Positions 1-43,158 of a stretch of 64,000 nucleotides of DNA are shown piece by piece. How positions within the stretch are numbered: position 1 is the stretch's first letter; every line of letters begins with the position of its first letter. The stretch is from Catajapyx aquilonaris. Its lineage: Eukaryota. The position numbers and the translations under genes are program-made. Where the stretch lies: contig KZ538098.1 in NCBI GenBank assembly GCA_000934665.2, positions 1-64,000 of the forward strand, read 5' to 3'. A model generated the notes under the pieces. The model saw only the letters and a list, made by a program, of their open reading frames with translations, made no database searches and was not told where the DNA came from.

Positions 1-2128
1 GGTGGATCACCGAAAGGAAAATTATTCCTTTTCAGTTTAATAAACATATTGAACTAAAGGTTAGAAACAGCAGTATGGTCACCGAAACACATCCTCAAGA
101 TGATGCCAGAAATAAAACCCAAAAGGCATGTACCAATGAAGAAAGACTATCCGGATATTCAGTGGTCAACAAGGATAATCACAGACTCGAAGAGAGAAAT
201 CACACAGAGACTGGAACGGTCCTCAGGCTTCGTGATTCTGATTCTGAAAGTATTTGTGGTAATAACGATCCTCAGAAATTGGAAAGGGCTTGCAATACGG
301 TCGAGGAAAATCGCAGTGATAATATTCATAAACAATTATGTACTTTCTCGGGCACAGAAAATAATGTCAATGTCATGCAGTTGAAGGACATGGGAAATGA
401 CACAACTCCGAAGAGAGAGGACATTTCAATCGTTTCCGAGGAAGAGAACCACTCAGAAGAGCATAACATAAGTGTGACATGTACAGTCGGCAATGATCAG
501 AGCGAGACACCTCTTCCGATGACATCATCTGACCATGACAAGAATCTGACAGAAATCACTGACAGTGCAGATGTCAATGCGAAGAGTGAGCTTGACCACA
601 ATTCTGGCAAAAACACACTTCCGGTGGTAAAGGCGCACATTATTTGTGTACAAGCAGATGATCGGAAGAGGAGTAATGGTAATGACATCACGAGTTCAGA
701 AGACTCACCAAAATATGTCGATGACAAGAATGCAGAAGAATTAACTCCAATAATAGATATCGATTCTGAAAAGAACAGCGATAATGGCAGTGAAATACAT
801 AACTACCGATTCAAAACTGTACCAAAAGGCCAATTGCAAAATGAAGACGCTGACTACAACATGTGCAAAAAAGACATCTATGCGGATGAAGCTTCTGCCA
901 ATAAACCCGGTCAAGGGTTTGAAACGAACAAGGCGGAAGACATAAACAATGCCTACGAGCAAGAGTCAGCTCTCAGTACTGAAGAGGTAACATGCACAAA
1001 TGTAGGTAATGAAAGTACTTGCCACGATTTGGAAGTTGCCATTAAATGCAAACAATCCTTCGAACAAGCGGAGAGTTATTCAACAGGTGCATCAGAAATA
1101 ACATCCGGAGATGACAATGAGCATGAAAACATTATTAAAAGTGTAAATGACGTACATCACTACCAATTAACTTCAGACCAAATATCAGGCAATGCATATG
1201 ACATTACTGGCCAAGAATTAGACAACGGCTTTGATCACAAATCACGATTACCATCAAGAGGTTTGCGAGAAAATATGTCCGAAATGACGTCGGGAGACGC
1301 CAGTAAAAAGGAAAACACTGGATGTGACTTACATCAATACCAGTTAACGTCAGACGAACTATCACACCACCAAATCGACATTATTGGCCATGAAGTCGAA
1401 AACGACCATGAACAGATGTCACGATCATCAAAGAGTTTGCCAGAAGATTTGTGCATATGCAAGAGCAGTAGGAGAAAGATAGGCTTTAATGCTAACGTAA
1501 AATATACCGGAGGAATTTTGCACATTACCAAGAAAAATTTGTCTTCCTGTGACACGGAATGGAGATGTCGGGGAAATACTTGCGTCAAAATCACTTTATA
1601 TGTAAGTAACGTAAACCTATAATTTTTATTACTCGTATTATTGTGCAATGACTTCATAACATTTTAGAAATTCAATTTCAGGGAGGGCTAGTCAAGAACG
1701 AAGAGTCTGATTGCAGTGGTCCTGGTCAACTGACTTCCATCATTGACGTCAATGGCATTATCGCTGTTGAATCACGCTCAACAATAGATCCAGTCACCGA
1801 TAAAAGCTGTGGTCTAAGACAAACAGAGTTAGATGAAGTGCGGGCCGAATTGCAGGAAATTCGCGACAAGGAAGCCACGGGAGAAAGAAAAGACGCTGCC
1901 AGAAGGCATTTGGAGGAATACGTTTACGAACTGAAGCATGTCTTGACATACGAATCAGGTGGTGACGAGACCTGCAAAGAAGAGAATCGTCGGGCGACGG
2001 TCGAGTGCGACCAAATGTTGGACTTTTTAGATGATGAAAGCGAGCAGACAGAGGAAGTCATGTTTGTCGATAAACTGAAAAAGTTCAAGGAAGAGTTCGG
2101 TTACATTATGAAAAGGAGAAATAAATAA
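1..2128 (+). CDS. 3' part of a divergent HSP70-like gene (G1): long acidic/low-complexity exon (<1-1601), then a last exon (1682-2128) with degenerate SBD-beta and lid helices
   Basis: The frame is open from the window start. Donor GTAAGT at 1602 and acceptor CAG at 1681, phase 0. Last exon reads 'TSIIDVNGIIAVE...ARRHLEEYVYELK...CDQMLDFLD', resembling HSP70 'TFDIDANGILNV...AKNALESYAFNMK...CNEIISWLD'. Layout matches G2 and G3. The NBD would lie upstream of the window. Confidence 0.7.
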
Positions 2129-2534
2129 TGAGCGCCATTTATTATCGCAAAGTGGACATAATAATTAATATGCAATCAAGTACACGGTATCACTGCAATC
2201 AGCTGCTTATTTTTCACTTCCCAGCATTAAAAAAACATTTCCGATCTCCCCTCAAGGAGTCGATAAATTATATTAATCACTTAATTTTTCCCCTACAGAA
2301 TGCCTATAAAAAGAAGCTTCATTTTGTAGGTGAACTTCTTGTTAGTTTATTTTAAAATGTTGTTGCAATCAATTGCTGTAGTTATTCTATTTGGCAGTTG
2401 GAAATATTATCACGAGACTATCTAATCACATGCGCACACCCGATTTCAATGGTAACGAGATAACACGCGAATGATAAAAAAGACACTGACATTTTATCGC
2501 ACATACATTGGCAGCCTTTGAAAGAGTGTCGGAA

Positions 2535-5073
2535 ATGGCTTCTGCCAAGTTTCCTGTTGCTGGGATTGATTTGGGCACCTCCGAGTCCAGAATTGCAGTG
2601 TGGAAGGATGGAAAGGTCCAGATGGTTCCAGACCTTTACACAGGGCAATCGTCCATCCCGAGTTATGTCTCGTTCACTGAGGGGCATGTTTTAACTGGAG
2701 AGTTGGCTAAACAACAGGTCAGCACTATGATCTTGTTTCATTTAGCAGAGTAACTGAAACACTAAGTTGTTCGTAATATTTTTCAACCAGCTTTACTATT
2801 GTCATTTGGTTTTCTTACAGATGGCTACCAACCCGAAGAACACTGTGTTCGAAGTGAAGCGCCTGATTGGTCGAGGATACGACGGATCCATTCCACCAAT
2901 CGGAAGATTTGGCTGGCCTTTTCAAGTACTGCCGTTCACTAGTGGTAAAGCCCGTATTGCAGTCATGGGAAGCAATAACATGATCACGTATTATCCGGAC
3001 AACATCATGTATCGTATACTGGAGGTAATGCTGATGAATACAAAGCAATTGCTACCTCTCGGCGTGACCCAAGCAGTAATGACGGTTCCAGCTTATTTCA
3101 AAGAGTTTCAAAGAAAGCAAGCGACGAGTGAAGTGGCAGACATGGCCAAGATCAGACTTATTCGAGTCATCGACAGCTGCACGGCTGCTGCTCTTGCCTA
3201 CTCTCACAAGAAGGGCCTGAAGACTGCAACTCATGTGCTGATCTATGACATGGGCACTTACGCATTCCAAGCCTCGGTGATGAAAGTGAACGACTTTCAT
3301 GTTGAGACGATTGTAAGCGAGACCAACGCTTTTCTGGGAGGCAAAAACTTGGACCGAAGTCTGATGTTATGCTGCTTGAATGAGATCATGAGGATTCAGA
3401 AGCTGGATTTGAGGAATGACCTCCAGGCACGAACTAAGCTCTATTCGGCGTGTGAAGAAGCCAAAAAAATGCTATCCACCCAGAATGAGGTCACTATACG
3501 AGTTGATAAACTTTCAAAGAATTTGAACTTCACCTGCAAGGTGGGCCGTGTTCAGTAATTGAAGGGATGGAATGCAAGAAGTTTCATCTACAAAAATCCC
3601 TTTCGGCTGTTTAAAGATTTCAACAAACTAGAAGGGTATGATATTCCTCTACTTTTTGCTTTCAACCCCTTCAATTACTGTGTTTACATAAAATAATACA
3701 AGGTAACTTCTTGTGCATAGTCATATTCGAATTTCCATTTTCCACTTACCTGTGCATCCTGTTTTCTCTTTACGACAGATTTCTCGGCAACTTTTTGAAG
3801 ACTTTGCCATTATTAGCATGGTAAATAGCACTTTGGATCTTGTGGCACGTGCACTGTCGAAAGCAGGAATAAATAGAAGCCAAATAAAGGATGTTGTCCT
3901 GGTCGGAGGATCTACACGCATTCCAAAGCTGAGAGATATGGTAAAGGAATTCTTCAACTTGCAAGAGCTGGACCAGTGCGTGGATCCGGAGGATGTACTG
4001 GTCTATGGCGCTACTGTACAAGGTGCTCTTTTAAACAACGACATAAAAAGCAACAGTACGAGCAGCACAAAGAAAAAAGTTTCTCCCAACCCATTTGGAG
4101 AGTACAGGTACACCACGGGTAGAACAAATACCTCAAAAAAGAGAAGTAGCCAGTTTCCACTAGCTGCTGGTTTGAAAAGTTCTGATTTAAGTGGAAAGGA
4201 CATGAATCAAAGGGTAAATCGCAATATCGAATTTCTTTCTACCCAATCAGAGGTCATGAAAGGTAAATCACATGCCCAAGACCTATTTCAAAAAATATCC
4301 CAGCATGATTATAACATGTCCTTAGTCACAGAAGGGCAGAAAGGTGCAGCTGGTGCACCACCCGGCCTCTTTGGAAAGTCTGGAACCCAGCGCTTTACGA
4401 GAAATAATACAAGCGAACCCCGAAATTGGTTTCTGAGTGCTCCAGTGGTTGTCAGCTTGAGCGGAGCTATTTTGCAAATTTCAAAGAGAAAATGGATATC
4501 GCATTCTAACGCAAAGTCTAAAGGAAAGATGGTTAGAATCATAGTCCCTGTAAGTAACATACTTTTTTATTTTTTATGACACAAGATTTCATCCGGAATC
4601 TCCAATATTTCATACTTACTTTAATTTAGTTCCAGGAAGGGATTACCTACAGTGATTCTGGCCGTAGTATTGAAATATCATTAAATGTCAACTCGGACGG
4701 AATTATTCACGCGAAAGCAGTCAAAACATTACCTGGACTGAGCAACAACACAGGAACCAGGAACAAAGACGATCTAAGGAACACCGATTTGTTAGAAATG
4801 AAGAAGGAAGCAGAACAGTTCCGCAAAAAGGAAGCAATGAAGATGGAAAAAGAAGACGCAAAAAGAGAATTGATTAGCAGGGCATACTCATTTAAAAAGG
4901 AGGTGGAATCAGGACACTATTACAAAAAATTATCCCAAAGTGATAAACAGCAAGTGAAGGATGAGTTCAATAAAGCTTTGAATTTTTTTGAGGAAAATGA
5001 ACAGGCCGAACCAAGCACACTTGAGAATGTGATGGAGAAATTGGAGCAAAATATTCGTCGTTTTTCGGTCTGA
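2535..5073 (+). CDS. Divergent HSP70-like gene G2; exons 2535-2717, 2821-3540, 3779-4549, 4630-5073
   Basis: Motifs [40 protein letters not shown] and C-terminal 'IEISLNVNSDGII...AKRELISRAY'. Three phase-0 GT-AG introns keep the frame. Confidence 0.85.
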
Positions 5074-5918
5074 AAATGATTGATGACAACATACTGTTCC
5101 TGATATTCATTAGAAAGAACTAGGGTGGGCATTTTAACAATGTCGACTCTGTACTCGTATATGGAATTTGAGATAGGCTGAGATAATATTCAAACTTTTA
5201 TATGTTGCTGTAACACTTCATGTCAGTGTGAATTATGCATTATAACAAAGTGTACGTATATACCTTAAAATAAGACTTACCTTAAACCCAGGACTAGCCC
5301 AGGACAATCGCCGATTTTCCGCATGGATATCCAGGTGATATAATTCTTATTTTTCAAGTGGTTGCTGTATATATGGACCTGTGTAAATTGACCGAAAGAT
5401 TGAGTGGAATATAATGATGCAGAGCTGATAAATTTCTCTCAGAGTTGTATTATGATTTGTGTACTACATTATATCGCTAGTCAATAAATCATTCTCAAAT
5501 TTCAATATAATCAATCAAATTTCATGATTATAATTTCTTTTTATTACTCAGAAGCAGAATAAATTGAGGCAGCAACGCCAGTGGTCCTTGAGGGTAAGAA
5601 TATTTTTTATATTTTTATATTTTTTTAAAGTCGTAGGTATAGCACGCAAAGATTCTGCGAAGTATCTTTAGGAGCGTAGTGAAATTAAATGCCTAGAGTT
5701 ACACATGATATAGATAATGAGGTCTGCCAGTAAAATTAATATCTATCACGTAGATTAATCTTTGTGATAAAAGGTCTCGAACATCTACAAGGACTATAAG
5801 ATAATGTAAACAGAGGTTGTGACTATTCACCTGATAATAATTCATTTATTCCACAGGAATACGTCAGCCTGTAAAGTAACAAACTTCTAAATAAAACTGA
5901 TTTTATTATTGAATTACT

Positions 5919-8561
5919 TTAATACATGAGTTTATAAATTAATGGTTGGATCCTCGTCTTGAAATCCCTCAACAGAACTTCGTAGGTGTTTTTTTCTGCC
6001 GGTCCTATCTCGTCTATAATGTCCAGCATTTGGTAGCACGCGTTCTCCAGCCATTCCTCCTCATCTTCAGAGATCTTGCCTTCCCATGTATCTGCAACCA
6101 CATTCTTCAATTCGTACACAAAGTTCTCCAGGTCGGTCTTGGCAAGGTCTCTCTCCCGTCTAATTAATTCGTTCCGCCTTAATTCCTTCAGTTCTTCCTT
6201 CATTACTGACAGCTCCGTTTCCTTCTGCTCATCTGCTTGATTATTACCGGCGACAATGAAATTCCGCTGACCCGTGACTATTTTGGTGTAATCTGAGACG
6301 TCAGTAATTCCGTTGGCATCGACGCTGACAATCACTTCTCTATGATGATTTGAATTATTGCTGTAAATCACTTTCTCTATACTTCTTCCCTGAAACTGCA
6401 ACAAAACACAATATCAAAATTTGTGAGTCAAACTTAATCTTCTTGGGCTAAAATTAATTTAGTCATCGTACATAATATGATTACTTTTTTTTCCAAGGAG
6501 TGCTGCACAAAACAACCAAAGGTATGTAGGCTTATACACTTGGTAACAGATAGATATTTACTTACGGGCATAGACATGATGGCACATTTTCTTCCCATAT
6601 TTTCACACCGAATATACTTGGGAATTGATTTTTCCTTGAAAATGCTCACAATTCCTCTAGTGTACGTCATATCAAAGGTTAAATCGACTTCTTCGTCCTG
6701 ACTGCTTCTACCTGGAGACAGCTCTTCCACATGGTGCTCATTTCCTTGTTCCGTAATTTTGTCAAAATTTGTCACTTTGCTTCTGTTCCTTTTGAGCTTC
6801 CGTGTGTCCGAGATGACATCATTTTGTGTAGGTTCGTTTAAAACGGGACCAGAAAAACGGTACTGATGCATATCATTACCTTTGTCCCTGATATGTTCGT
6901 AAGAGGCTACTCTTTTGGGACGTTGTTTGACCTTTTGTTCAGGTATGTGTCCTGATCTGGTCGTCAGGTCATCATAGGACATACTGTAATCAAACGATTG
7001 CTTTTCTTTTCGACGAGTGCTTTTAACACTGTTGTGGTTATGAAAGCCATTTTGACTGCCAGATGAATCTTCCCTTTTGATCTTAGGCTTACTTCCCTGA
7101 GCAGATTTCATGCATTTCTGTGTCACACCGTTTGACGTAACTGTTTCGCTTTGAGCAAACCTGACCTCCTTAGGTTTATTGATGTGAATTGGCCTGATAC
7201 CCTCAACTGTGCTCTCTTGTTGTATGCTCTCGTTCAGAAGAGCACCTGCAATTGCAGCTCCATAAACAACAGCTTCCTGCGGGTCGACACACTGGTCCAG
7301 CTCTTCTCTCTCGAAGTGATCCCTCACCATCTCCCTCAATTTTGGTATTCGGGTTGATCCCCCCACAAGAATCACGTGATTTATATGAAATTTTTTGATC
7401 CGGGCTTTTTCCAGAGTACTTTCCACGATGTTGAGCGTGTCCTTGATGAAGCCTGTGTACAGCCCTTCGAATTTTTGTCGCGAAATCTGCGGGAAATAAT
7501 AACCAATTAGTAGTCTACAGTTCAACTCAAATTCAGCGAAAATTTATGTTATTTTTTTCAACATGGTTGAACTTTACCAGTCTAATACTGTACCTTACGA
7601 GTGAAGCTAAAATCATTGCATAGACAATCAACTCTAATTGTTGCCTCATATCTCTCGGACAGTGTCTTTTTGGCTTCTTCACATGCAAGTAAAAGCTTCC
7701 ATTGTGCTTCGAAATCATTTCTCAAGTCTATTTTGTGGCATCGCCAAATCGCGCTCAAACAGTAAGACAACAAGCACAGGTCGATGTCACTACTTCCAAG
7801 GTTTTTATCGAAATCCGTCGCAACAATTTTAGGGTCGAAGTTCTGCACATCCAGCACTGACACTTGGAGCACATATTTGCCCAATTCGTACACCAGCACG
7901 AGACCCGCGTCCTTCAGATTCTTTTCGCAACAATAGGCAAGTGCAGCAGCCATGCAATTGTCGATCACATGAAGCACATTTATTTTGGCTATCTCCGCAA
8001 TGTCTATTGTTGCTTGCTGTCGTTGGGCCTCGTTGAAGTAAGTCGGGACTGTCATCACCGCTTGGGTCACCTGGTGATCCAAAAATTCGTGGGCATTTTT
8101 TAGCATTCGCTTCAACACGTATGATAAAATGCGTTCTGGGTAATACTCTCGAGGCGCCCCATTTTTCTCCACTTGAATGTGAGCTTTTCCACCGCTAACT
8201 GACACTTCAAATGGCCAGTAAAACTGGTCAGTCGGCGGAAGAGAGCCGTGGTCACTTCGTCCGATCAGACGCTTCACATCGAAGACTATGTTCATCAGGT
8301 TGGTTCCCGTCTGTAACTAAGGTAAAAATGTTTCAGTATTTTTAAACCAGTTTTATCTATAGAGATAGGTCTAACCTGCCTTTTGGCGTATTCTCCGACG
8401 TACGTTTTCTTCCCGATGAATGTGACGTAACTGAGCGTAAAAAGCTTTCCTTCTGCGTAATAGTTGGGTATGATCTCTACTTTTCCATCTCTACACACAG
8501 CCATTCGTGACTCGGAAGTGCCTAGATCTATACCCACAACAGGCGGTCTTGTATTGTCCAT
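5919..8561 (-). CDS. Divergent HSP70-like gene G3; exons 8561-8376, 8310-7594, 7486-6566, 6395-5919
   Basis: Motifs [43 protein letters not shown], 'VSVDANGIT', 'AKTDLENFVY'. Phase-0 GT-AG introns at the same positions as in G2. Confidence 0.85.
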
Positions 8562-8697
8562 TTCCGAGCCACAGTTTATTCCTTATTAGTCACTTCCTTA
8601 TCTTTATTTGCTGCCTCTTTATTTTAAATCTGAAACGAAATTTTTTTGTCTACAGTTCCATTACAGAGCCTATTTTGTGAAAAGCTCTAGTCTATCC

Positions 8698-8698
<1 letters not shown>

Positions 8699-8772
<74 letters not shown>
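8699..8772. repeat. (TAT)n microsatellite
   Basis: About 24 perfect TAT units. Confidence 0.95.
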
Positions 8773-8773
<1 letters not shown>

Positions 8774-9466
8774 GAAAGCACGTCTTACCGGTGTTAGGAC
8801 TATGTAATTGAACTGCTGTCCAGCCATATTTTCCTGGCGTGAATATTGCGGATTGCACGAACATGTAAGTGTATTCCAAGTGGAAACACGAAGCATCCTT
8901 CCATTTTGCACTGTTATCTTGTTACTACAGCAGCCAGGGGGTGATAAGGTGATTAGATAAACATTTGATAAAGGTAGGATGTCGTGGTCGTCAGAGAGAG
9001 GCAAAAAAATACTTGCGTAACTACACTTACGTATAACATTGTGAGCCAACAAATGAAAAGTTAAAGTTACCGGAAATTATTATGATATCGCAAACTTGTA
9101 GAGTGTGCATTAGGAGCATGTCACAAGATATTTAAAATATTTATTCTTATCTCTTCGTGGTTGCATGCTGTGAAAAATTCACAAACCACTATTTTTTAAT
9201 ATTTTATCATTATGCGCACTTCAGTATAACATTCAAAAAGTCAGGACTTGGTTGAGATTTATTGTTACATAATGATTACATCGTGTTTTAGACTAATTTT
9301 GGCAAGTACAACTACGTAGCCTTGGAATTACAGTCCGAAAGGAAATGTGCAACATTAATATAGGAACAACTTGTATAAATGAAAGAGAACGAACCAATGC
9401 AATGAACAGCAGCCCAGTCATCCAAAATTATGATAGTCTCAAATATTGCTTGCTTTTCCCTATAAG

Positions 9467-11300
9467 CTACTCATCGTCACTTATGTTGTATGATTGTCTG
9501 TAGACGTGAAGGTTTTCTATCTGTTCCCTTAATCGGTGGTCATGTGGTGTCGATTCCTTTCCTTTTGCTCGGAATAGTCGTACACCGCAAGTGTTGGGCT
9601 CCTTCATCTCCGCCTGATTGTTCTGATGGAATTGCTTTGCGTCATCGCATTGACAATCCGGTCCGCAGGATGCTGAGGAACTCTTGGGATCTTCCAATTC
9701 GACAACCGGTTTCTAAAAAGCAGATTTGCTGATATTTCTGTCTAATTTTTCTGACTATTGTTGTGCCTACCTGAAGGCGTACGTCATCCTCAATCGAGTG
9801 TTTAGTACTAACATCCACTTCAATAACAGGATGAAGAGAGACGGCTTGCATAGCAGCTCCAGTCACAACTGTTTCTTCAGGACGGGCATTGTTGCAAATA
9901 GCTTTGCCTTTGAAGAAAGCCTTCACCATGGCCTGTATTCTGGGGATGCGAGTGGAACCCCCAACCAAAACCACGTCGTCAATATCACTCTTGTCCACAC
10001 TGGCATCGCAGAGAGCTTTTTCCACAAAGTGCACGGTCCTTTGGAAAAGGTCCAGGCACAGAGAATCTAACCGGATTCGTGTCAACTGCAAAGTAAGTTG
10101 TAAAACTTAGACCGGTCTAATGCATATTGATGGTGCATCGTATACCTTGAGGCACAAGTCGATTCCGTCGCATATGTTGTCAACGACGATTGGCGCCTCA
10201 ATAGAGCTGGCGAGTGTTTTCTTGGCTTTCTCGCAGACTAGTCGCAGTCGATCCATTGCCATTTGATGCCCTGTGATGTCCACATTATGCTTGTTCTTCA
10301 ACCATCTGACGTAAAAGTCAGCTACACGATTATCAAAGTCTCTTCCTCCCAGGTGAGCGTCGCCACAGGTGGACATGACCTTGAAGGTCAGGTTTGTGAT
10401 AGTCAGCACTGTGACGTCAAACGTGCTTCTTCCGAGATCGTACACCAACACGTTTCTCTCTCCAGTCGACTTCTTTTCCAATCCGTAGGCAATGGCTGCT
10501 GAAGTTGGTTCGTTGATCAATCTGATCCCTGTGAAGCCAGCGATCTGTCCCGCGTCTTTGGTCGCCTGTCTTTGGGCGTCGTTGAAATACGCCGGTACCG
10601 TCACCACTGCGTCGGTCACCTTTGTCTTCAGAGCAGATTCGGCTCTTGCTTTCAAATTGGCCAAAATCATTGCACTAATTTGCTCAGGGTAAAACCGCTC
10701 CTTCTCTCCGTGCTGCTGGACTTCAATGGAAGGTTTACCAGCATCGTTCACAACAGGAAAACTCCAGGACTTCAGGCTCCTCTGGACTTCTGGATGGTCA
10801 TAAGTACGGCCAATCAAGCGCTTCATGTCGTAAACAGTATTCTCAGGTGTTATCACCATCTGAAAAAATGTACAGTAGGCTCCAGGGTTATCCGCAGAAA
10901 ATATTTTAAATAAATAATCATAAATATAATACTTACATTTTAATATCCAGCATGAGGTGTTTTAATTGCAATATAGTAGCCTACTCTTTTCTCATTGACA
11001 TCCTTTATTATTGTTTTTTATTGTTTTGGTTGATATGTGCATATGCATTATTTGTGTACTAACCTACACCATAGCATAGGTGTGTACAGTAAAGTACTAA
11101 TACACTGTACATGAGAAATTAGTTCTTGCCTGCTGCTCAGCGGGGTCTCCAACAAGCCGTCCTCTGTCAGTGAAAGCGACGCAATTAAGGGTAGAAAGGT
11201 CCCCATGCTCGTTATAGAGGACCTTGACATGACCTTCGTGCCACACTGCCAGTCGAGAAGTTGTGGTTCCCAAGTCAATTCCAATCGCCTTCCGGTCCAT
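9467..11300 (-). CDS. NBD-only HSP70-like gene G4; exons 11300-11130, 10859-10146, 10085-9771, 9712-9467
   Basis: Motifs [45 protein letters not shown]. No SBD follows; the last exon is a short unrelated tail and is less certain. Intron 1 donor is GC (CAG|GCAAGA). Confidence 0.75.
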
Positions 11301-12576
11301 TAGTCTCCTCTACCTGATAAATCACAGACTGAAATGGAAGGTCCGGTACTGAATTAAAGGCGTGATTAGGCGACAAAGCTAATGTCATTGACTCATTGTT
11401 GGCAACAGCCTGATTCTCTAGATATAGGATAATAATGCTCATACTAATATTCATTACCTGCAGCTTGAATAGTAACGCTAATAATCGATAAAGCGAAAAA
11501 TACCACAGTATCAAGTAAGTTCTTTTATGTTACTACCTTTAGGAGTATCCATTAATGGCCGACTTTTATCTATTCTCTCTCCTATCTCTTCCTCTTCAGG
11601 CGATTATCTTACCGTTATGGTGCTATCGCGGACTTGCAGTGCAGTCCTGTCATGCCACGTAAATGTTCCCTTGAGGAATATTATACGGCCGCAAAGAACA
11701 GTCTATATACAACATTATTTTGTACAATAGAATTTTTTTGCATAGGCCTACTCATTTGTCACAACTGACGTCCAAGTATCAAGTAGTACACCTATTATTG
11801 GATATTTAATGCATTCTGATAATGAATTAAGTTTTTTAAATAAAGTGTAGATGTACTGTCTACGACATACCTCGTTACGCTGATTACGGACCAAATACAA
11901 TTATATCATTAGGTTCTCAGCAGGTCGAGCGCGCTGTATGAATCCGACAACACGAACGAACTGATGACTCTTCCATCTTACGTGTAAAAAGTTATCATGT
12001 AGCTGCTTGTCACACAGCACGCAGGGTATTTTAACCATTATAAAATATGTAGCCTACAGTATTATGTTACAAAAGGATACCGGTAATATCTTTCTGTCAG
12101 GACAGCAATATATTCATTCGCAATATGCAAGTTTTCGTTATAGGGTCGACCTCAACATGCCCGTTGAGCCGTATTAATAAATTAAAGTTCGGATTGACTG
12201 CCTGATGAATATGGCATCAATATGGGTTCAAACATTACCTGATTCTCTCCCATTCAAATAATGGCTCAAACGTCATAACAGGCCGTACAACTGCTAATAA
12301 TAATTTACACAAAAAATTGGAAATGAGTGAAAACTCATTACATTTGTCTCGGTAAATGTACGGTCCGTCTTTATGGATATGAGCCAGAAAATTCACAATT
12401 ACACTGAAAAAAGTCACACTTTATTTTTACACATAAATGCATAAAAATATTTGAAGTTGCAACACAATTTTAATTAGAAAATCAGACATTACAAACAAGA
12501 CAAAATATGAGGCAGAAACGTTGTCTCTTGTGATTGAATGGGCATTATTTCGGACATTTCTGGCAGTCTTTTCTTC

Positions 12577-14475
12577 TCAGTCCACGTAAATCTGAAACAA
12601 AATTTTACGGTGTCAAGATGCATATTGTAATGTCACATACTGTGCAATTAATAGTACCTCAATTTCTTTTTCTTGGTCGTATCCCAAGTACGAGTCAGAC
12701 TTCAAACAAGCTTTGTACAGGTAACCTCCCGGAATGAACGGCAGGGTTATCGTGAATAACACTCTGGCATAATCCCTCAAATCATTCACAAACTGAGGTC
12801 CTTTCACCAATCTTAGACACCATATGTCACACAGGTACAACCACCAACCTTCCTCCCTTTCCTGCAATTAAAGGAAAGATCTGTAAATTGTCATAATTAT
12901 TCAAGCAAAAGCTGGTGCTCACATATGCAAAATCTGACATTAACTAACCTGCGTAATTAATGGGCAGTGCACATTTATATCCGTCTGTGGATCTGCTGGC
13001 TCATAACCATGACCAAACTTTGAGTTCAGCATGTTTCTTCGCGTTAATATCACAGTGACGTCTATGAAGAGTAGGTTTTCTTCACGTGAATCTGTAACTA
13101 CAGAGTTACATTTAAAAAATTGGCCTTGGAAATATAGTTAAGTTTTCACACGTCGTAATGATTACCTCGCGTGAGGACATGCATTTCAACAAGAGGCATC
13201 TTCTGACACATTTTCATCGCTGTCCAGTACTCATCTTCGTTGAGATTTCGCAAAATGTCCCTCCTTTTGCGATCCTCCGAATGTGCAAACTTTTCCAGGC
13301 TTTCGACTCGATTCCGATTGATGCCAAACTGGTCCAGCACCCCGTCATTCACATGTGGAAGCTGCAACAATGAGTTCTGACCCTTCCATAGTCCCTGAAC
13401 CAACATTGGACTCAGGTCCATGCACCTGACCAGATTGTCCAAATCATGTCCCCCTCTGCGATTCGCCATTTCGGTCGCAACTTTCACCAATACAGGAACC
13501 AACTCCAGGCACTTCTGAATCACAAATCGAACGTCCTCTACATTACTGGACGATTCCAATTGATGCAAATAAGCCATGATTATCGATTTGGCCTTCAGCT
13601 GGCAAAAATCCATGCCTCTGTCCATATCGCCAAAATAATAGACGAATCTTTTGGTTATTCGTGCGACCATCTCTCTGTCTCCTCGTCGTTCGCAAATTTC
13701 GTCGTTTTGCTTCGAGTCGAACTCAACAGACCATGCCAATATGGTCACCACTTCTGTATGGTTCGTCATGTGAGATTCGCTCAGCTTTAGCTTGTAACAA
13801 TCTTGAGTTCCTTTGCGAATTTTAGCCTGAAATAATTCATAAAGTATTAGAAACGCAATTTTTAAAAAATTGTCGCCATTTCTTCCTGCAAGGCCGTACC
13901 TGTCTCTCAGGATATCGAAGCGATTTGTAATGCCTGTGAGCCAGCCATGGAAGGCCAGCGAGCAACAAAACGACGCACAGTATCAGTACCTTTGGATGGT
14001 AAATTAAATTATTAAAAAGTCAACTTTATGGTGGTTTGAACAACTCACATTTAGAGAGTTGAGTACCTTGCCCGTTTTGAAAGTGGGGTCATTCACGTCC
14101 GCATTTATTTCCGTGGAAGTGACATACACCAACAATAGGTACAGCATCCACACAGTAGATAAGCTTAAACAAAATTGTTGTAATACAAAAAAAATCGTCC
14201 GGTTACATAACGCACTGACATAGAGACTCACATTGCATATCTGATGTGTAATTCATTCTGCTGAGATTGAGTGGCCTTGACTTTTGACAGGCAACCATTG
14301 CAGCTGCAGCGCTCACTTCCGGCTGGTTCTGAAGGTCACAACCATTAAAACGCAGTCACTAATACATGTCAATTGTACTTATTGGCTCACCTTTTCGTTT
14401 AATTCGCGGCCAGACCAGGTAGGTCGCCGGTATGATGAAAACCGTAAAGATAGACGTCAGGAACAAGAGGAGCAT
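12577..14475 (-). CDS. SEC63-like protein lacking the J-domain; exons ~14475-14391, 14328-14232, 14163-14067, 13989-13900, 13826-13166, 13091-12949, 12861-~12658, 12591-12577
   Basis: Hand translation gives 'FEFDTYGDMLLLFLTSIFTVFIIPATYLVWPR' (SEC63 TM1), CSCNGC, TM2, TM3 'LPWLAHRHYKSLRY', 'ILAWSVEFD', 'LSPMLVQGLW..NSLLQLPH', 'EEGWWLYLCD' and 'LKSDSYLGYDQ'. All introns are GT-AG with compatible phases. The start codon is uncertain: homology extends upstream of the first in-frame ATG. Confidence 0.8.
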
Positions 14476-15525
14476 GTCCCCATACGTGTCAAACTCAAAT
14501 TTGCGGAAAGTGATTGCAACGTGTCGCTTCAGTGTCGCGTTCTTGACTTGGAATGGATAAGTCTTATCATATTATGCTTCCCGGGGCGGTTTATGTTTCC
14601 AGGGCAATGACTCAGTCTAGATAACTACCCTCAATCCTTATCAGGGACGGCGCCAATCGCTCCATGTCGCGCCTTCTAACGTTTAGAAATTAAACTTAGT
14701 TCAAATTGCACATAGCACTCTGACTCTATATGAGCTACAGTATGTTACACGGTTAGGATAGGTTGCGTGTTTACCTATCGTATCCTTGGACTAGGTCGTG
14801 AGAACAAGGGGAATTTACATCTCACAGAAGCTCTTGCGTGATCAAGACACCTCTTGGGGGTTCATTCATACGAGTAATTATTATTGACGTAAATCGTCAT
14901 CTTCATGCACTGCCGTGTCATTTTGGCGATTTAAATTTTTATATATACCATATCACCAAATATTCACCAAATGTTAGTGCTCGTTGACCCTGGCCATTTC
15001 AATCACTGCAGGCGTTTGAGGCAGAGTTGTCAAAACATATTTAATTGGCATTTTCAGCTGTGACCTTGTGACGATCGTAAAATGCACAAAATCGGAGATT
15101 TTCTCCGTAATTATGGAATTGTGATTAGGTAACACAAATAATCCAGAAAATAACAGTCAGTTTAGAGATTTGAGATAAATCTCGCACATAATTATACCAT
15201 GTGTACAGTACTATGCGTAGGCCTAATCACTCTAGTTGTCTAGTATGCTCTATACTTTGTACATCCGTATGCAATGTCATTGGTCATAATCACGAGTTAA
15301 TGAATGCAGGTCCACCATTCAAAATTAATGTTTGATTTACCTACTCGATGAAAGTGCATTTTTAGCATTTGTGATCAATTTGCAAGGCAATCATTAATGC
15401 CTACATTGAAACGTTGTCATATAATTTATTATCTCTTTCAAAAAGTGTGGTGAAGACACAAAAGGCACGGTAAACTGGTACAAGATCTTTGAATGTAATT
15501 AAATTAACAATTTTAGAGTGCTGTG

Positions 15526-15698
15526 AATGACTGGTCCCTGATTTGTTAAGTCAGTCGTCCCACAGCTGAGGCGCCTTGGACGTGTCCATCTTGGCTGCCT
15601 CTATACCTTTGACCTGTTCTTGTTGGCAAACGCACCCAACCTCATGTGTCTCTCCTGGACGTCCTTAATGCTTCGATACGCCTCGTCTTTTGGGTCGC
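15526..15698 (-). pseudogene. Fragment of an MpaB/DUF2236-like oxygenase gene
   Basis: Clear nucleotide match to 18280-18457 (DPKDEAYRSIKDVQERH...EAAKMDTSK) with indels. It joins directly to sequence resembling the upstream flank of the 17688-18764 gene. Confidence 0.8.
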
Positions 15699-16289
15699 AT
15701 GTGGCACAACACCTGAAATTAACTCTAACTGCTCACGTTGACTGGGAAACGCTATTTTCTGCAGTAATAATTATAATATTTCATCCCAAAGTAGCTACAG
15801 TACTGTACACCTGCATATACAGTAGAATGTTGCATGTTTAGAGTGATCTTAAGTATGGGAACTACAAGGTGGGTTCTTCGTTGATATCAAGCAGTGGCAG
15901 CAAATGTTCGAAATTATTTTTTAAAATCCACATTATAAAAGCTTTCCAAATGTAGCAAAATGTGTGACTTGTTGTGTCCCATCGTCATGAGTTATGCACC
16001 GTACACTCTTATTTTATTTGAAAATCTAGAGGTGCGCCACGGGGAAATAAAATTATAGATTAAACATGAGATGCTCTTAATTATTCAGGCTGGGATAAAT
16101 ACCGCACATACCGCTTAAACTACTGTGCTTAAACCATTGCTATTGATATTTCTCTGACTCATTAGAACTGATATGAGTGGCTCCACCAATTTTTGCACTT
16201 TGTAGTAGGCATACGTAGTTTAAAAGGAAGCAGTCATCAGGCCCTGTCTTAGCAGCATTTTCGTTCTTCACAGAGAGTCTCTAAAATTA

Positions 16290-17687: not shown

Positions 17688-18764
17688 TCATAAGCTTATT
17701 GTGTTTTTACTGATGCATTCTCTCTTAAGCATCGAAACCATCATTCTTGCTGATAAATTCAGCAGTACCACCACAGGTCTAAAACGACACAAACAACCAA
17801 GCAGAAAATTTGTTAACTTGAACTGCACTTTGGAGTACCACCTAACATGGGGGGTTAATGAAGCAAGAACATCGTTAAATCCGCAGATCCAAATAATTAA
17901 GAGAATTAAACTTTCTGAACTCATGGCCATGCGAAAAAAGACAGATATATCACCTGCAGCATACGCCATCATTCTCAAGTAATACTCATTTTCAGTGGAA
18001 ATATTTTTGATGTTTGGATGTAACACTTGGTCCAACCCCTCCTGACAAAGTGCCCTCGTTTGATTCAGAGTACCCGAAAATGGATTCAGGTAGTCCTCTA
18101 CTCCCAGATGGTAACACAACACTCTCCACATATACACATAGTCTCCAATCTCCTCTTCTGTTGCTCCGTGTATGCCCATCTTCTCTGGACACAATATTAC
18201 AGGGGACGCCATTGCGACTGCTGCCACGGCCAAGTCCAGCTGGCTCATGTATGGACACCCATCCTGAAGCTTGAATGGACACGACTGGTCCCTGATGTGT
18301 TCGGTCAAATGACACTCTTCCCACAGCTGAGGCACCTTGGACGTGTCAATCTTGGCTGCTTCCACCTTCGACTTGTTCTTGTTGGCATAAGCACCCAACC
18401 TCCTGTGTCTGTCCTGGACATCCTTCATGCTTCGATACGCCTCGTCCTTTGGGTCCCACAGGTCTCCTTCAAACCAAGTTGTGATATGCACCAGTGTGTT
18501 CTTCAACAAGCGTTGCAGTGACTGTTTACTATCGAACTTGCCGTAGTACATGAGCACCTGATGTCCGGATGGCCAGAGGAAGTTGCTGGTTGCTGCCACA
18601 CACATGGACATCAGGGTACCAAGCAAGTTCTTCTGAACAAACTTCTGTCCCCTCCGAAACCTGTCCTTGTCCAACCAAGACGGGGCCTTGTCCATAGTGT
18701 TTACCGTTGTGTATGGTACCATTGCACCGTCTAGAATGAGCTTCTGCAGGGTTAGTCCTTCCAT
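17688..18764 (-). CDS. Intronless MpaB/DUF2236-like (ER-bound oxygenase / rubber oxygenase catalytic domain) protein, copy 1
   Basis: Motifs 'PSWLDKDRFRRGQKF', 'VQDRH', 'MSQLDLA', 'EEIGDYVYMWRVLCYHLGVEDYLN' are typical of this family from recalled knowledge. Start set at MEGLTL, shared with paralogs. Confidence 0.75.
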   Translation of the reverse strand: MEGLTLQKLILDGAMVPYTTVNTMDKAPSWLDKDRFRRGQKFVQKNLLGTLMSMCVAATSNFLWPSGHQVLMYYGKFDSKQSLQRLLKNTLVHITTWFEGDLWDPKDEAYRSMKDVQDRHRRLGAYANKNKSKVEAAKIDTSKVPQLWEECHLTEHIRDQSCPFKLQDGCPYMSQLDLAVAAVAMASPVILCPEKMGIHGATEEEIGDYVYMWRVLCYHLGVEDYLNPFSGTLNQTRALCQEGLDQVLHPNIKNISTENEYYLRMMAYAAGDISVFFRMAMSSESLILLIIWICGFNDVLASLTPHVRWYSKVQFKLTNFLLGCLCRFRPVVVLLNLSARMMVSMLKRECISKNTISL

Positions 18765-19125
18765 GTTGCGAGTAAGAGAGCCTAACCGAGAAAGTTGATT
18801 TATATATGCTAGAATGTAGCAAGGATTATGCAATGGGATTATGTGTTGTTGTGTTATATGACTGATGTGGCCCAATAACACCTGAAATTTAGTCTAAGGT
18901 GTATAATTACTACGTAAGTTGGTTGTGAAATACTAGTTTCTGAAGTAATTAATATTTCACACCAAAGTACACCTGCATGCAATGTTGCATGATTTGAGGA
19001 ATTATACCAGATGGGCTGAGGTTCTTTATTGAGATCAAGTAGTACGTTGCATTCAGAATTATTTTTCAATTCACTCTAAAAAGCTCTCTATCTCTGTTGC
19101 AAGAGGTGTATCTTGTTCTACCACA

Positions 19126-22255: not shown

Positions 22256-23335
22256 TCATAATCTTATTGTGTTGTTACTGATGCATTCTCTCTTAAGCAT
22301 TGAAACCATCATCCTTGCTAATAAATTTATCAGTATCACCACAGGTCTAAAACGACACAAACAACCAAGCAGAAAATTTGTTAACTTGAACTGAACTTTG
22401 GAGTACCACCTAACATGGGGCGTTAATGAAGCAAGAACATCGTTAAATCCGAACATCCAAATAATTAAGAGGATTAAACTTTCTGAACTCATGGCCATGC
22501 GAACAAAGACAGACATATCACCTGCAGCGTACGCCATCATTCTCAAATAATACTCATTTTCAGTGGAAATATTTTTGATGTTTAGGTGTAAAACTTGATC
22601 CATCACCTCATCCTGACAAAGAGCCCTCGTTTCATTCAGAGTACCCGAAAATGGATTCAGGTAGTCCTCTACTCCCAGTTGGTAACACAACACCCTCCAC
22701 ATATACACATAGTCTCCAATCTCCTCTTCTGTTGCCCCGTGAACGCCCATCTTCTCTGGACACAATATTACAGGTGACACCATTGCGACTGCTGCCGCGG
22801 CCAAGTCCAGCTGGCTCATGTATGGACACCCATCCTGAAGCTTGAATGGACACGACTGGTCCCGGATGTGTTCGGTCAAATGACAATCTTCCCACAGCTG
22901 AGGCACCTTGGACATGTCAATCTTGGCTGCTTCCACCTTCGACTTGTTCTTGTTGGCATAAGCACCCAACCTCCTGTGTCTGTCCTGGACATCCTTCATG
23001 CTTTGATACGCCTCGTCCTTTGGGTCCCACAGGTCTCCTTCAAACCAAGTTGCGATATGCACCAATGTGTTCTTCAACAAGCGTCGCAGTGACTGTTGAC
23101 TGTCGAACTTGCCGTAGTACATGAGCACCTGATGTCCGGGTGGCCAGAGGAAGTTGCTGATTGCTGCCAAACTCATGGACATCAGTGTACCGAGCAAGTT
23201 CTTCTGAACAAACTTCTGTCCCCTCCGAAACCTGTCCTTGTCCAGCCAAGACGGGACCTAGTCCACAGTGTTCACTTTTGTGTATGGTACCATCGCACCG
23301 TCTCGAACGAGCTTCTGCAGAGTTAGCCCTTCCAT
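22256..23335 (-). pseudogene. MpaB/DUF2236-like oxygenase copy 2 with an early nonsense codon
   Basis: Close duplicate of copy 1. ATG at 23335 is in frame, but AAG has become TAG at 23260-23258. Confidence 0.8.
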
Positions 23336-24164: not shown

Positions 24165-25983
24165 TCATACTGGGAATTTAAATAAACCAGCTTAAGCCAT
24201 TGCTATTCACGCTCATTGACTCATTATGTCAGTGTCTGCATCCCTATTTGCATGTTGTATAGTTTGAAAGGAAGCATCCATTCGGTCCTGCCTTAGCAAA
24301 TATCTCAATTTGCGGCTTTTTATTTGGCAGGTGAAAACATAATATCCAGTTTTTTGTCAAAAAGTATCGTAGTGACTTTTCGTTGATGCCAGCAGCCTGT
24401 AAGTAAAAGTCAAAGAATTCACTCGACATCGTCTCTGCCAAAGTGTTCGTGCACTTTAATATCCGTTATAACTTAAATTGTTTCAGTTTATATTGTCGAA
24501 CCTCTGTCAGTTCAAATCAGCGGTCAGCATTATTAATTTTTTATTATGATGATTAAAACTGGGGTGGAATTTTCTTCCCATTGCTAGTTACTGCTACCTT
24601 AGCGGTACCATTTCCATCACAGGTACTGGCGTACTGCTACGTTAGCAGTATGTAGCAGTGGGACGAAAATTCGACCCGTATTGTTCTATTCACGGTTGCC
24701 AGTGTAATATCAAATTTGACAAGATACAACACAAATTAAATTCATTTTCTCACATATTGTTAGGCTGCATTGATGCATCAGTCTATTCATAAAGAGCAAA
24801 GCTAACAAGGTTGCAAAGACCTATTGTCACTTCTCTTGAAGGTTATCGATCTGTATCATTTTGAAACACCTAAGTATTGTTCTCGAATATTGCTCGGCTT
24901 TGTAAGACATTAATAAATACATTTCTTAATATAAATTTAATAGTACATTGAAATTTTGAAAATCGACTTGTAATGTCAGTCTATATAATTATTATTTATG
25001 TAGTTCTACATAAATTTAAATTTCCCAAGAGTTCGCCATATTACATGACAATGCATGCGTACTCGTAGATGAGGATTAACTGCAATCCTATACTGTTGAC
25101 AATACATTGTATGAATACGCAGACAATCGGCTATTTAATATAAGGCCATTGATGACGTTGGCATAAATCTACACATACTGTATTTACGAGAGTGCGGAAA
25201 TCGTGAGTTAGCAATATCATAAAAAATGTATTACACACTACTTAATAGACGTGCATAAGTGTTCATGTGCAATAAGAGTAGGCACTTATTTGTATGAAAG
25301 GTGACCCTGTCTGATACGACACGTACAATCGTATACATTGTGACAAAATAATGTACATTTCGTCACTGGCTTAGGTAACAAGATCAACATTTGTCATTTT
25401 ATTAGCCATAAACACTTCTTGGAAAAAGGAAATTGCAAAAAATATTCAAAACTAATATTTCTTCGCATTTTCAATCCAATTTTTGTTAACTATGTGCATA
25501 ATGGGAAATATTTTCACAAAGTATTGATAGAGCAGTCTCAGACTTGTGACAATAAATTATTAATAATATTTCGATGAATACGCTGACCTTGTGCGATTTT
25601 GAAAATCACAAGACTATTGATGACGACTGCTGGCATAACTTATGGGAGTACGGAGATGCTGACTTTTTGTAATATCATAAATTCTGTATAGGAGAATATT
25701 TCATCCTTAAAAGACGTCTATAAGTAGTGTTTATGCGCAAGACCACACTAATAATCCGCACATATTTGGTGACCCTGTCTTCTGATACATTAAGACAAAA
25801 TAATGTGCATTTCATCACTGACTTAGGCAACAGGCAAACATATTACATCAAGAGTTTTTTCTTGGTCAACAACTATGGCAACTCCCACATCAGTGTTAGA
25901 GCTTCTCGTGTAATATTATAAAGGAGTAAAAAACTTCGTGTACCGCCAGCATTTTTCACACTTCGTCTGCGTGGTTGAGCACC

Positions 25984-26970
25984 ATGGAAGGACTTCGTCT
26001 CCAAAAGCTCCTAGAGGATGCTGCATCGGTGCCCTACACCAAAGTGAACTCCTTGGACGATCCTCCGTCATGGCTGGACAAGGACAGATTTCGGAGGGGA
26101 CAGGCCTTCTCCCAGAAGAACTTTCTTGGAGTCTTGATGTCGTTTAGCATGGCTGCTGCAAGCAACTTTATATGGCCACATGGCCACAAGGTCCTTCTCT
26201 TCAACGGAAAGTTCGACAGTCCCCAAACACTCACCCGTTTGATAATGGCAACGGCCGTGCATTTCTCAATCTGGATGAAAGGAGACCTGTGGGGCCCACA
26301 GGACGAGGCGTATCGAAGCATGAAAGATGTCCAGGACAGACACAGGAGGTTGGGGAACCACGCCAACAAGAATAGGTCAAAGGTTGAAGCAGCCAAGGTG
26401 GACACATCCAAGGTGCCTCAAATTCTGAACGAGTGTCGACTGACCGAACACATCAGGGACCACCCACCTCCGTGTCCATTCACGCTGCAGGACGGGTGTC
26501 CATACATGAGTCAACTAGACTTGACCTTGGGGTCAATTGCATTTGTAAGTCCAATTGTGCTGCATCCGAAGAAGATGGGCATTCACGGTGCGACTGAAGA
26601 GCAGATCGGTGACTACGTGTACTTGTGGAGGGTGCTGTGTTACCACCTGGGAATTGAAGACCAATTCAATCCATTTTCTGGAACACTTGAACAAACAAGA
26701 ACCCTTTGCCAGGAGGAGGTGGATGTGTTGTTTGTGCCAGGGATGAAAAACTTGACGTTAGAAAACGAATATTATCTCAGAATGATGGCAGCTTCAACTC
26801 ACCAGAAATTTAGCTTTCTGCGGCCCATCATTACCTCCGAGTCTTTTGTCCTCCTCCCCATTTGGATGCTGGGAATAACTGATCTTCTGGCATCAGTATT
26901 AGCGCATGTTCCATGGCACTCTAAGCTGAGTTTCCTGTTCTTCGAGTTCTTAATGTGTTTTCTGCTTTGA
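25984..26970 (+). CDS. MpaB/DUF2236-like oxygenase copy 3, C-terminally truncated by TGA (ancestral end 27066)
   Basis: Same motifs as copy 1. TGA at 26968-26970 sits where paralogs have Arg. The frame continues 'FKPIAM...KECKDRGIIRI*', homologous to copy 4. Confidence 0.75.
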   Translation: MEGLRLQKLLEDAASVPYTKVNSLDDPPSWLDKDRFRRGQAFSQKNFLGVLMSFSMAAASNFIWPHGHKVLLFNGKFDSPQTLTRLIMATAVHFSIWMKGDLWGPQDEAYRSMKDVQDRHRRLGNHANKNRSKVEAAKVDTSKVPQILNECRLTEHIRDHPPPCPFTLQDGCPYMSQLDLTLGSIAFVSPIVLHPKKMGIHGATEEQIGDYVYLWRVLCYHLGIEDQFNPFSGTLEQTRTLCQEEVDVLFVPGMKNLTLENEYYLRMMAASTHQKFSFLRPIITSESFVLLPIWMLGITDLLASVLAHVPWHSKLSFLFFEFLMCFLL

Positions 26971-30800: not shown

Positions 30801-31739
30801 ATCAAAGTCTCTCCCTCCCAACATCTTACGACTCTCGCTGCAAACAACACTCGGTTTAAGGTCCTTCACATTCAGTACTGACACTTGGAATGAGTATGTG
30901 CCCATGTTGTACACCAGCAAGTTGTTTACGTCTTTCAGCTTTTTTCCATAGCAGTAGGCAAGAGTAGCAGCAATGCAGTCGTCGATGACATGGAGGAGGT
31001 TGACTCTGGCAATTTCGGCGACACGACTTGTTGCCCGTTGTCGTTGGGCCTCCGTGAAATACGTGGGGACAGTCATTACTACATGGGTCACTGTAAGACC
31101 CAAAATTTTCTGGGCATTGTCCAACAGCCTTTCCAGCATCCAGGACATGAAGGTTTCTGGATAATACGTTTGCTTTTCTTTCTCTTTCTCAATCACAATC
31201 TGAGCTCTTCCTGCAGTACGTGAAACTGTAAACGGCCAGTAATTCCTCGTTGTTGGTTGAAGTGAACCATCACTCGTCTTTCCAATTAATTGCTTCACAT
31301 CAAACACTGTGTTCTTCAGATTCTTGCTCATCTGCAAGAGCATTGCGCATTTTATTTTATTTATATTATAGTTACTTACTACATACTGTAATCCTTTAAG
31401 GTACCGGCATAAAAAGCTGACGACGTATATAGGGAGATGAAATAATATGAAAATAAACATGCGACTAGAACTTAAATCGGCGTTATGTAACTGAACATTA
31501 ACGGTGGAATAGCATGAACTACTGTAGTTGTGCATTTTGTAATAAATAATTCTTACCTGTTTTTTGGCTTGATCTCCGAAGTATGTTTCCCCATCGGTGA
31601 AACACACGTAACTGGGTATGAACGACTTCTTTCCCTGTTGGTCAGGAATAACCTCGATTTCTCCATCCTTCCACACCGCAATTCTGCATTCGGATGTTCC
31701 CAAGTCGATCCCAGCAGCAGGTAATTTTGCAGAAGCCAT
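27838..31739 (-). CDS. Double-NBD HSP70-like gene G5 (~1,069 aa); exons 31739-31557, 31331-30615, 30493-29855, 29796-29569, 29449-28736, 28674-28237, 28128-27838
   Basis: Two complete NBD motif sets joined in frame by a 58 bp phase-0 GT-AG intron (29854-29797). The second module has [24 protein letters not shown] and an SBD. The lid helices continue in another frame to 27668 (frameshift). Confidence 0.8.
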
Positions 31740-33049
31740 TTCGCACTTAATGAGTGTTGGTGTCTTTAACTGATAATAACCCTATAAAATACACTCTGAC
31801 AAAACCTAGAAGTATCAAAAAGGTGCCTGTTTCCAAACATTTGCTTGTATCAGTCGTAGAAAATGTGCGGATTTTGCGAGTCGAAAGTTCTTGTTATCTG
31901 TGCCATATCTTCAAGTGTCTACCAAAAAATAAACTAATGAAAGGAAAAGTGTCAGCCACAGACAATATCTCAGAAATTGTGCAAGAATTTGAGCGCACCT
32001 GCTACTCCTGAAATGGCTTGACGTAGACTAACCTTGATCTCTGTTGCATGATATGCCCTAGCTGACGCAATCGGGCGACTTTTTGATTGCATTATCACTG
32101 GATAACAATAGGCACTCTCATAGGTCCTATAGTGAATGATCAAAGCTACGGTACCGATAGAGCTTTCTTTATTCAAATGTTTGAGGGAACTTTTTCATAC
32201 CTGTAAATTGACTTTTTTCAAAATTGTCTCTCTGATGTAAGTGCACAGTATAAAGTACCTGGTTTAAAATTTAATCGTCATCTGAAAGGCAAAGTAACAG
32301 CAATGACACCGTATATTTTTAGAGGCGTCGGTTTCAATTTTTTCATAATTCAATTTTTGAATGTATTTCAGGGATGTGTCAAAAATTAATAATGTGTGAT
32401 GTTTTCGCAGATGCAGCAGTCAAGATAATATTCCTAATTCGTTTGATGCATAATACATCCTTCTTCATGCACTGCTACCTTGTTATCACAGTTAATCTTA
32501 AGTGTGTTAGTGATTAGATAACTATAAGGAATGGTAATTCTCACTACTGATAAGCAATGCTGTACTATTATTATTATGGGAGATTATTTAGTAGGTCTCC
32601 TACAGTAAATGATGATCGATTACAAGTGAAAAAAAGCCAGAATGTAAAGATAAAACACACAGTTTTCCTCCATGATTTCATATTGCATGTTTTGTCTTTA
32701 TCAAACAAGTCAGCCAAAATAAGTTTACATGGTTTAAGTGAACTTCATCCTGAACAGGACAGGGCAAAAAATGAATTAGTGAAATGAAAAGAAATTAATG
32801 ATTTTAATGACTAGTTTCACCAGTAATTATAAAAATATTATGAAAAATGCCCCTGTAAATAAAAGCATGTATAATATTAAATAAGATATTTTGCACATTA
32901 AAAAGCAATAGAACCAGAATGCTGCCCGTCCGAAATATGTTTTGGCATAGAGTACTTTATTATCGTCATTCAATACATGGAGACGATCACTGCCGTCTGC
33001 TGTATACAGTAAATTATACCACTTCCAATACTTCAGCCCCAGATTTTTT

Positions 33050-43050: not shown

Positions 43051-43158
43051 GGGTAGAATTTTCTTCCCGCTGCTAGTTACTGCTAACTTATCAGTACCAT
43101 TGCCAACACTAGTGCTGCTAAGGTAGCAGTAACTATCAGTGGGAGGAAAATTCTACCC
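43051..43158. mobile_element. 108 bp palindromic mini-MITE inserted in the 3' coding region of G7
   Basis: TIRs GGGTAGAATTTTC / GAAAATTCTACCC, with a 3 bp duplication AAT on both sides. Confidence 0.85.

Follow-up and report, generated by a model that had tools for sequence, protein, structure and literature searches.

A transcribed SEC63-like gene without a J domain among HSP70 genes of Catajapyx aquilonaris

SEC63 is a conserved gene that is normally present once, and through its J domain the Sec61 channel is linked to BiP. What, then, is a SEC63-like gene that has no J domain and is flanked by HSP70 genes? We analyzed this question in a 64,000-nucleotide stretch of DNA from Catajapyx aquilonaris (the window), for which the original prediction had proposed a SEC63 paralog with the J domain cleanly deleted. 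Alignment, Pfam, fold prediction and RNA all supported a SEC63-like gene without a J domain; that this gene is a duplicate, as the word paralog implies, is what we infer.

The gene was modelled by reading the minus strand together with a scripted search for exon ends. The RNA-corrected model starts at the first in-frame ATG (14475), ends with a TGA (12579-12577) and has 471 codons in a frame open across eight exons. All seven introns were of the GT-AG type and 59-87 bp long, all 14 splice dinucleotides were intact, and an inspection for pseudogene features found no stops, frameshifts or broken splice sites in the gene. Three hydropathy peaks in the 471-aa model matched TM1-TM3 of canonical SEC63 proteins by alignment, giving the predicted topology TM1, cytosolic loop, TM2, lumenal loop, TM3. 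The parts are as follows.

14476..14514, minus strand: N-terminal in-frame stretch 5' of the first ATG, resembling the conserved N-terminal lumenal segment of SEC63
14391..14475, minus strand: exon 1, first in-frame ATG and TM1 (hydropathy peak at residues 3-21; aligned to canonical TM1)
14232..14328, minus strand: exon 2, cytosolic loop with CxCxxC (scripted exon ends; Cys columns kept)
14049..14163, minus strand: exon 3, TM2 and a 22-residue lumenal loop replacing J domain and linker (RNA contig 14047-14163, joining 13989)
13990..14048, minus strand: intron 3, 59 bp, between the TM2 and TM3 exons (joint in run X5 'skips 59, CT..AC (cut +2)')
13900..13989, minus strand: exon 4, TM3 (strongest hydropathy peak; RNA; aligned to canonical TM3)
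13166..13826, minus strand: exon 5, helical part of the Sec63/Brl domain (Pfam PF02889; full RNA cover)
12949..13097, minus strand: exon 6, end of the helical part and site of the charged insert, the insert itself missing (RNA and alignment)
12658..12861, minus strand: exon 7, C-terminal beta (FN3-like) part (tblastn E 2e-10; RNA cover; aligns to canonical 587-661)
12577..12591, minus strand: exon 8, 15 nt, four codons and TGA (RNA and alignment; canonical proteins continue here into the acidic tail)
12487..12576, minus strand: portion of the 3' UTR seen in RNA (X5 contig end at 12487)
12425-12420, minus strand: candidate AATAAA beyond the RNA cover (motif read in the sequence)
1652-10961, 27841-36577 and 43086-45160: HSP70 gene pieces on both sides of the SEC63-like gene (Pfam)

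Five public runs matched the window. Four of these were DNA runs from one sample, possibly the source of the assembly itself. The fifth, X5, came from a different sample and a different study and had 0.49 of the sampled words present; since its contig lacked five introns, we took X5 to be RNA-derived. Over 12200-15700, X5 yielded a single spliced contig of 1324 nt, which covered 12487-14163 with zero mismatches and skipped five stretches with CT..AC ends on the plus strand, corresponding to five of the seven introns (introns 3 to 7). Introns 4 to 7 were exactly as modelled, and exons 3 to 8 were joined. At the TM2-TM3 junction the contig skipped 13990-14048 (59 bp) with the donor GTGAGT. The original prediction had placed a 77-bp intron here (14066-13990), setting the donor of the TM2 exon 18 nt too far upstream; with the donor in its RNA-defined position, exon 3 ends at 14049 and six in-frame residues (VLNSLN) are added before TM3. 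Intron 3, being only 59 bp long, is too short for any J-domain exon. The direct TM2-TM3 joining that had been expected in RNA (as 14067>13989) was thus found with the donor at 14049, and the gene was transcribed, the spliced contig over exons 3 to 8 containing no J-domain exon; the 5' end that was to be seen along with it would lie in exons 1 and 2 of the model, which had no X5 contig. The contig, the single one from this one run, stopped exactly at the exon 3 acceptor (14163). The missing cover speaks neither for nor against exons 1 and 2, and such a stop would fit an assembly-graph branch with two upstream continuations.

To define what the gene has lost, we compared it with canonical SEC63 (ERdj2 / DNAJC23). 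The best canonical match of the full model was P0001 of the flatworm Macrostomum lignano (729 aa, DnaJ at 105-162; phmmer E 9e-53), with which it shares the order TM1, CxCxxC loop, TM2, TM3, helical Sec63/Brl part and C-terminal beta part. The two aligned in three blocks (4-78/17-96, 106-373/199-480 and 388-462/587-661), and three stretches of P0001 were left without a counterpart, namely the J domain and its linker, the charged insert, and the acidic tail. The 22-residue loop between TM2 and TM3 aligned by MAFFT to the conserved post-J linker of canonical SEC63, and this lumenal segment before TM3 was 8 residues shorter in the copy. The protein ended ~40-65 residues short of the eight canonical SEC63s aligned and had no acidic run. 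According to a published report, it is the acidic end of SEC63 that binds SEC62 (PMC8657602). Alignments with P0001 and with the canonical SEC63s therefore bore out the predicted absence of both the charged insert and the acidic SEC62-binding tail.

The J domain was sought in several ways. Pfam found no DnaJ in the seven exon translations scanned (all but the 15-nt last exon), and the HPD motif occurred neither in the 471-aa model nor in any frame of 12400-14700. A tblastn search of the 64 kb with 11 canonical SEC63 proteins gave no match of the J region better than E 0.05, and a J-domain profile built from 15 canonical SEC63s found nothing below E 2 among 2707 six-frame pieces. Two tblastn matches within the J range, at 18047-18264 and 22788-22835 (E 0.05 or worse), were rejected as noise; they fall in paralogous, unrelated open reading frames, of which the one scanned had no Pfam family. 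The RNA junction, the motif search and the tblastn and profile searches are all in agreement with the earlier statement that no room for a J domain exists between TM2 and TM3 and that HPD is absent. Having no J domain (PF00226), the copy does not belong to the J-domain proteins.

The three membrane helices, the CxCxxC loop and the Sec63/Brl domain were retained, the losses on the cytosolic side being the charged insert and the acidic tail. The Pfam Sec63 family (PF02889) was found in exon 5 alone, with an E value of 6.1e-7 and 29.4 bits against a cut-off of 25; a Sec63 hit without a DnaJ hit is what the original prediction had expected of an HMM scan. The three cysteine columns of CxCxxC, conserved in at least 13 of the 15 canonical proteins, were kept. 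Pfam found nothing in exons 6 and 7 alone, and the C-terminal beta (FN3-like) part aligned to canonical 587-661 with the near-invariant columns there kept. A profile of the linker plus TM3 scarcely recognised the TM3 exon (E 2.6). An AlphaFold2 model of exon 5, based on an alignment of 36 sequences, had a pLDDT of 90.7, and Foldseek matched it to the Sec63 units of Brr2 and to the Sec63 chain of a fungal Sec complex (TMq 0.59-0.65), so that, as modelled, exon 5 confidently adopts the Sec63-unit fold. PF02889, this fold, the alignment and the RNA over exons 3 to 8 agree with the prediction that the Sec63/Brl domain is kept in frame. The best solved matches to exon 5 were the Sec63 units of Brr2 / SNRNP200 (3hib by sequence, E 7e-13; 3im1 by Foldseek, TMq 0.60). 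The copy differs from Brr2 / SNRNP200 in its three membrane helices, and over the full length it matched SEC63 proteins best. Since no Pfam family other than Sec63 was found in the exons scanned, the copy has no helicase cassette.

We then asked whether comparable proteins exist elsewhere. An exhaustive HMMER search with exon 5 against 1.84 billion representatives gave 164 matches at E <=0.001, the best 150 of which were examined. No ortholog was found in the protein libraries, the closest exon 5 match being 34% identical, and a word-based search for longer proteins, made with exon 5, was likewise negative. When the 33 top exon 5 matches were analyzed by Pfam, 21 had DnaJ and Sec63 (19 of them with a DnaJ score over the cut-off) and 12 had Sec63 alone. 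Several matches without DnaJ (P0004, P0008, P0027, P0038 and others) had no N-terminal part by profile and look like truncated or variant gene models; we did not count these as counterparts of the copy. Among the best 150 of the 164 matches, a different set of 33 had both the N-terminal part and TM3, and a J domain was present in 32 of them. The remaining one, P0085, is a patchy gene model from a fish (202 aa) and was likewise set aside. Full-text literature searches of open-access texts found no description of a published SEC63 paralog without a J domain.

The N-terminus of the copy was altered as well, a start-codon problem that the original prediction overlooked in its account of the 5' gene structure. 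A profile of the N-terminal part of 15 canonical SEC63s matched the open reading frame at 14362-14571 on the minus strand from residue 23 of that frame (E 2.7e-10), so that the match starts ten codons ahead of the first ATG. The canonical Met corresponds to profile position 1, where the copy reads ATC (14514-14512); the first ATG lies 13 codons downstream and TM1 is retained. The tblastn alignments with canonical SEC63s also extended upstream, to 14502-14505, and, read from the stop at 14574-14572, the frame has its first ATG at 14475. As read from these sequences, either the ancestral start was lost and translation now begins 13 codons later, or a non-ATG start is used, or an upstream exon escaped our view. 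With the first ATG now downstream of it, the conserved N-terminal segment has probably ceased to be translated. In the yeast Sec complex, as described in a preprint, the back of Sec61 is contacted jointly by the N-terminal segment 4-13 and by a short segment that precedes TM3, and TM3 and the FN3 domain make the remaining Sec61 contacts (10.1101/2020.12.14.422728). The altered elements of the copy are the two lumenal ones, namely the N-terminal segment and the pre-TM3 segment. Both being altered or apparently untranslated, the copy resembles the yeast lumenal and FN3 mutants of the same work, in particular the deletion of residues 210-216 (yeast's own numbering), which was tolerated alone and was lethal only together with an FN3 mutant (10.1101/2020.12.14.422728).

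Taking these features together, we favor, at a probability of roughly 0.55, a lineage-specific, fast-evolving and still-working SEC63 duplicate, which would be uncoupled from BiP and SEC62 and would dock on Sec61 as a brake or competitor or be put to a new use. The strongest rival, which we regard as unlikely although it has to be taken seriously, is a transcribed duplicate in decay that shed its modules (J domain, charged insert, tail and start codon) under relaxed selection and is non-functional or nearly so, its frame not yet having been hit. The ATC at the canonical ATG site is one of the points in its favor, the ten codons before the first ATG still matching the N-terminal segment, as would fit a recent loss; another is that no orthologs were found in the protein libraries, and a third that the region is full of young tandem duplicates. 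Divergence gave arguments in both directions. Identity to canonical SEC63s was 24-30% (that is, 70-76% different), with canonical proteins being 26-49% identical to one another. Of the near-invariant columns (conserved in at least 13 of the 15 canonical SEC63s), 53 of 69 were kept (77%), as compared to 34 of 199 variable columns, an uneven distribution of the substitutions that speaks for the working duplicate. When each canonical SEC63 was left out in turn, it kept 80-99% of the conserved columns, so every one stood above the copy. In a tree of 18 SEC63s, the copy had the longest terminal branch (1.68 versus 0.33-1.16). The branch and the lower retention of conserved columns fit relaxed constraint, and hence decay, as well as they fit a working duplicate. 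In this tree the partners of the copy were two SEC63s, one ichthyosporean and one fungal (support 0.72), and the group fell within a clade that also contained Drosophila. Since these partners are non-animal, we read the placement as long-branch attraction, uninformative on origin, and rejected the grouping as evidence.

What speaks against decay is the state of the reading frame. When random substitutions were simulated, the median number of changes up to the first stop was 14 (1.0%), and 55 changes (3.9%) sufficed in 95% of the runs. The 1413-nt open frame would thus survive only ~1-4% neutral divergence, compared with a protein difference of 70-76%, indicating that nearly all of the divergence arose with the frame kept open. 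In addition, the splice dinucleotides are all intact, the transcript is correctly spliced, and the codon-position composition is strongly coding, the G+C content being 53% at third codon positions versus 33% in the introns.

Much less probable is that the copy is the sole SEC63 of the organism, an ortholog that lost its J domain and left the recruitment of BiP to another ER J protein. Its identity of 24-30% does overlap the low end of the canonical range. The J domain is nevertheless established as needed for SEC63 function, and it was carried by all but the patchy P0085 of the 33 matches with an N-terminal part and TM3 among the best 150 of 164. Moreover, the longest branch is unexpected for an essential single-copy gene, and the organism is otherwise slow-evolving, with a dystrophin exon that shares 91% identity with insect proteins. 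That the J-less junction stems from a deletion in the assembly or from an incorrect gene model has a negligible probability, for even if the DNA runs that agree with the window are themselves its source, the spliced contig from another sample and study has the same TM2-TM3 junction with no mismatch, the 59-bp intron cannot hide an exon, and the DNA depth over the gene (43, as one variant-free contig) equals that of the flanks.

If the favored reading of a working duplicate is right, the copy would encode a putative ER membrane protein of ~470 residues with three membrane helices, the CxCxxC loop and the Sec63/Brl domain. This protein would use TM3 and the Brl/FN3 domain to bind the back of the Sec61 channel, where canonical SEC63 docks. 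Residues just after TM3 are required for Sec61 binding, as a report on engineered mutants states from a deletion of residues 230-300 in mouse Sec63 (PMC9723807), and these residues have aligned counterparts in the copy. Having no J domain, the protein would be uncoupled from BiP, if it is made; it would presumably be unable to activate BiP in the lumen or to hold SEC62. A possible consequence is suggested by the engineered Sec63 HPD/AAA mutant, a tool for substrate trapping, which, according to the same report, traps nascent chains at Sec61 (PMC9723807). Like that mutant, the copy would not activate BiP, and its binding to Sec61 is predicted. In contrast to the natural copy, the mutant still has its acidic tail, its lumenal face is complete and its J domain is folded. 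In another study, excess human Sec63 lowered the levels of polytopic proteins independently of the Sec62-binding motif, and did so less with a J mutation (PMC3499540). By analogy with the HPD/AAA mutant trapping weak-signal clients, the copy could serve as a brake on the SEC62/SEC63/BiP branch of import or compete with it. Such a role is plausible, not proven, and the dominant-negative action raised by the original prediction may be viewed in the same light, the engineered mutant being its experimental parallel. Alternatively, the copy may have been reused for a new role that needs only a membrane anchor and the Brl domain.

A more specific version of the brake is decidedly speculative, and we consider it improbable. 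Here a natural, selected 'translocon brake' without the lumenal contacts or the SEC62 hook would hold the SEC63 site and restrain or re-route weak-signal clients, perhaps conditionally together with the neighbouring HSP70-like proteins, one of which is seemingly membrane-anchored. Should the working duplicate be real, a natural copy with only the membrane and cytosolic docking parts would separate the docking and BiP roles of SEC63 in vivo. It would reveal what SEC63 does at Sec61 without BiP and SEC62, a question addressed until now only by engineered mutants. If the copy is instead a decaying duplicate, it would be an ordinary by-product of a duplication-prone region.

The surroundings of the gene were examined for a connection with the HSP70 genes, since the original prediction had suggested that the copy and the ATPase-degenerate HSP70s around it share a function. 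The degenerate neighbours were indeed found, some HSP70s keeping the nucleotide-binding motifs and others having them replaced. No support was obtained for the shared function. A search of the 64 kb in either orientation found no perfect trimeric heat-shock element, with ~0.9 expected by chance, so that nothing points to a regulation shared with the HSP70 genes. At least two further families in the region are tandemly duplicated; duplication-prone DNA therefore suffices to explain where the copy lies.

Degenerate HSP70-like genes lie at 2758-3555 on the plus strand and at 7585-8316, 30579-31781, 35843-36577 and 43923-44777 on the minus strand; in the ATPase domain of these genes, other residues stand in place of the phosphate-1 and phosphate-2 glycine motifs, and the adenosine motif is retained. 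They alternate with HSP70 genes of a more regular type (28715-29491 and 34154-34990), which are at most 62% identical to any database HSP70. In a further degenerate HSP70 at 43086-43793 on the minus strand, the ~20 last residues of the open frame, directly before the stop, are hydrophobic and could form a membrane anchor. The open frame at 8690-9076 on the minus strand, which adjoins an HSP70 gene, contains 24 consecutive asparagine codons.

Six paralogous single-frame genes are interspersed among the HSP70 genes, at 17691-18893, 22259-23257, 41510-42745 and 56861-58174 on the minus strand and at 25930-26967 and 39519-40604 on the plus strand. Their products have 330-440 residues and are 41-92% identical to one another, and the sole Pfam match of the family was a sub-threshold mpaB/rubber-oxygenase domain. 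Upstream of the SEC63-like gene, at 14761-15013 and 15382-15700, the DNA run had two variants ~5% apart and a depth of up to 152 versus 43, a pattern that points to alleles or to a repeat. Part of a mariner-type transposase was detected at 47378-47728 on the plus strand (Pfam Transposase_1, E 7.8e-5, below the cut-off). The dystrophin exon, which encodes an EF-hand and by which the organism was placed among the arthropods, probably the hexapods, lies at the far end of the window (63708-63998, minus strand), and besides its similarity to insect proteins it is 70-78% identical to crustacean ones.
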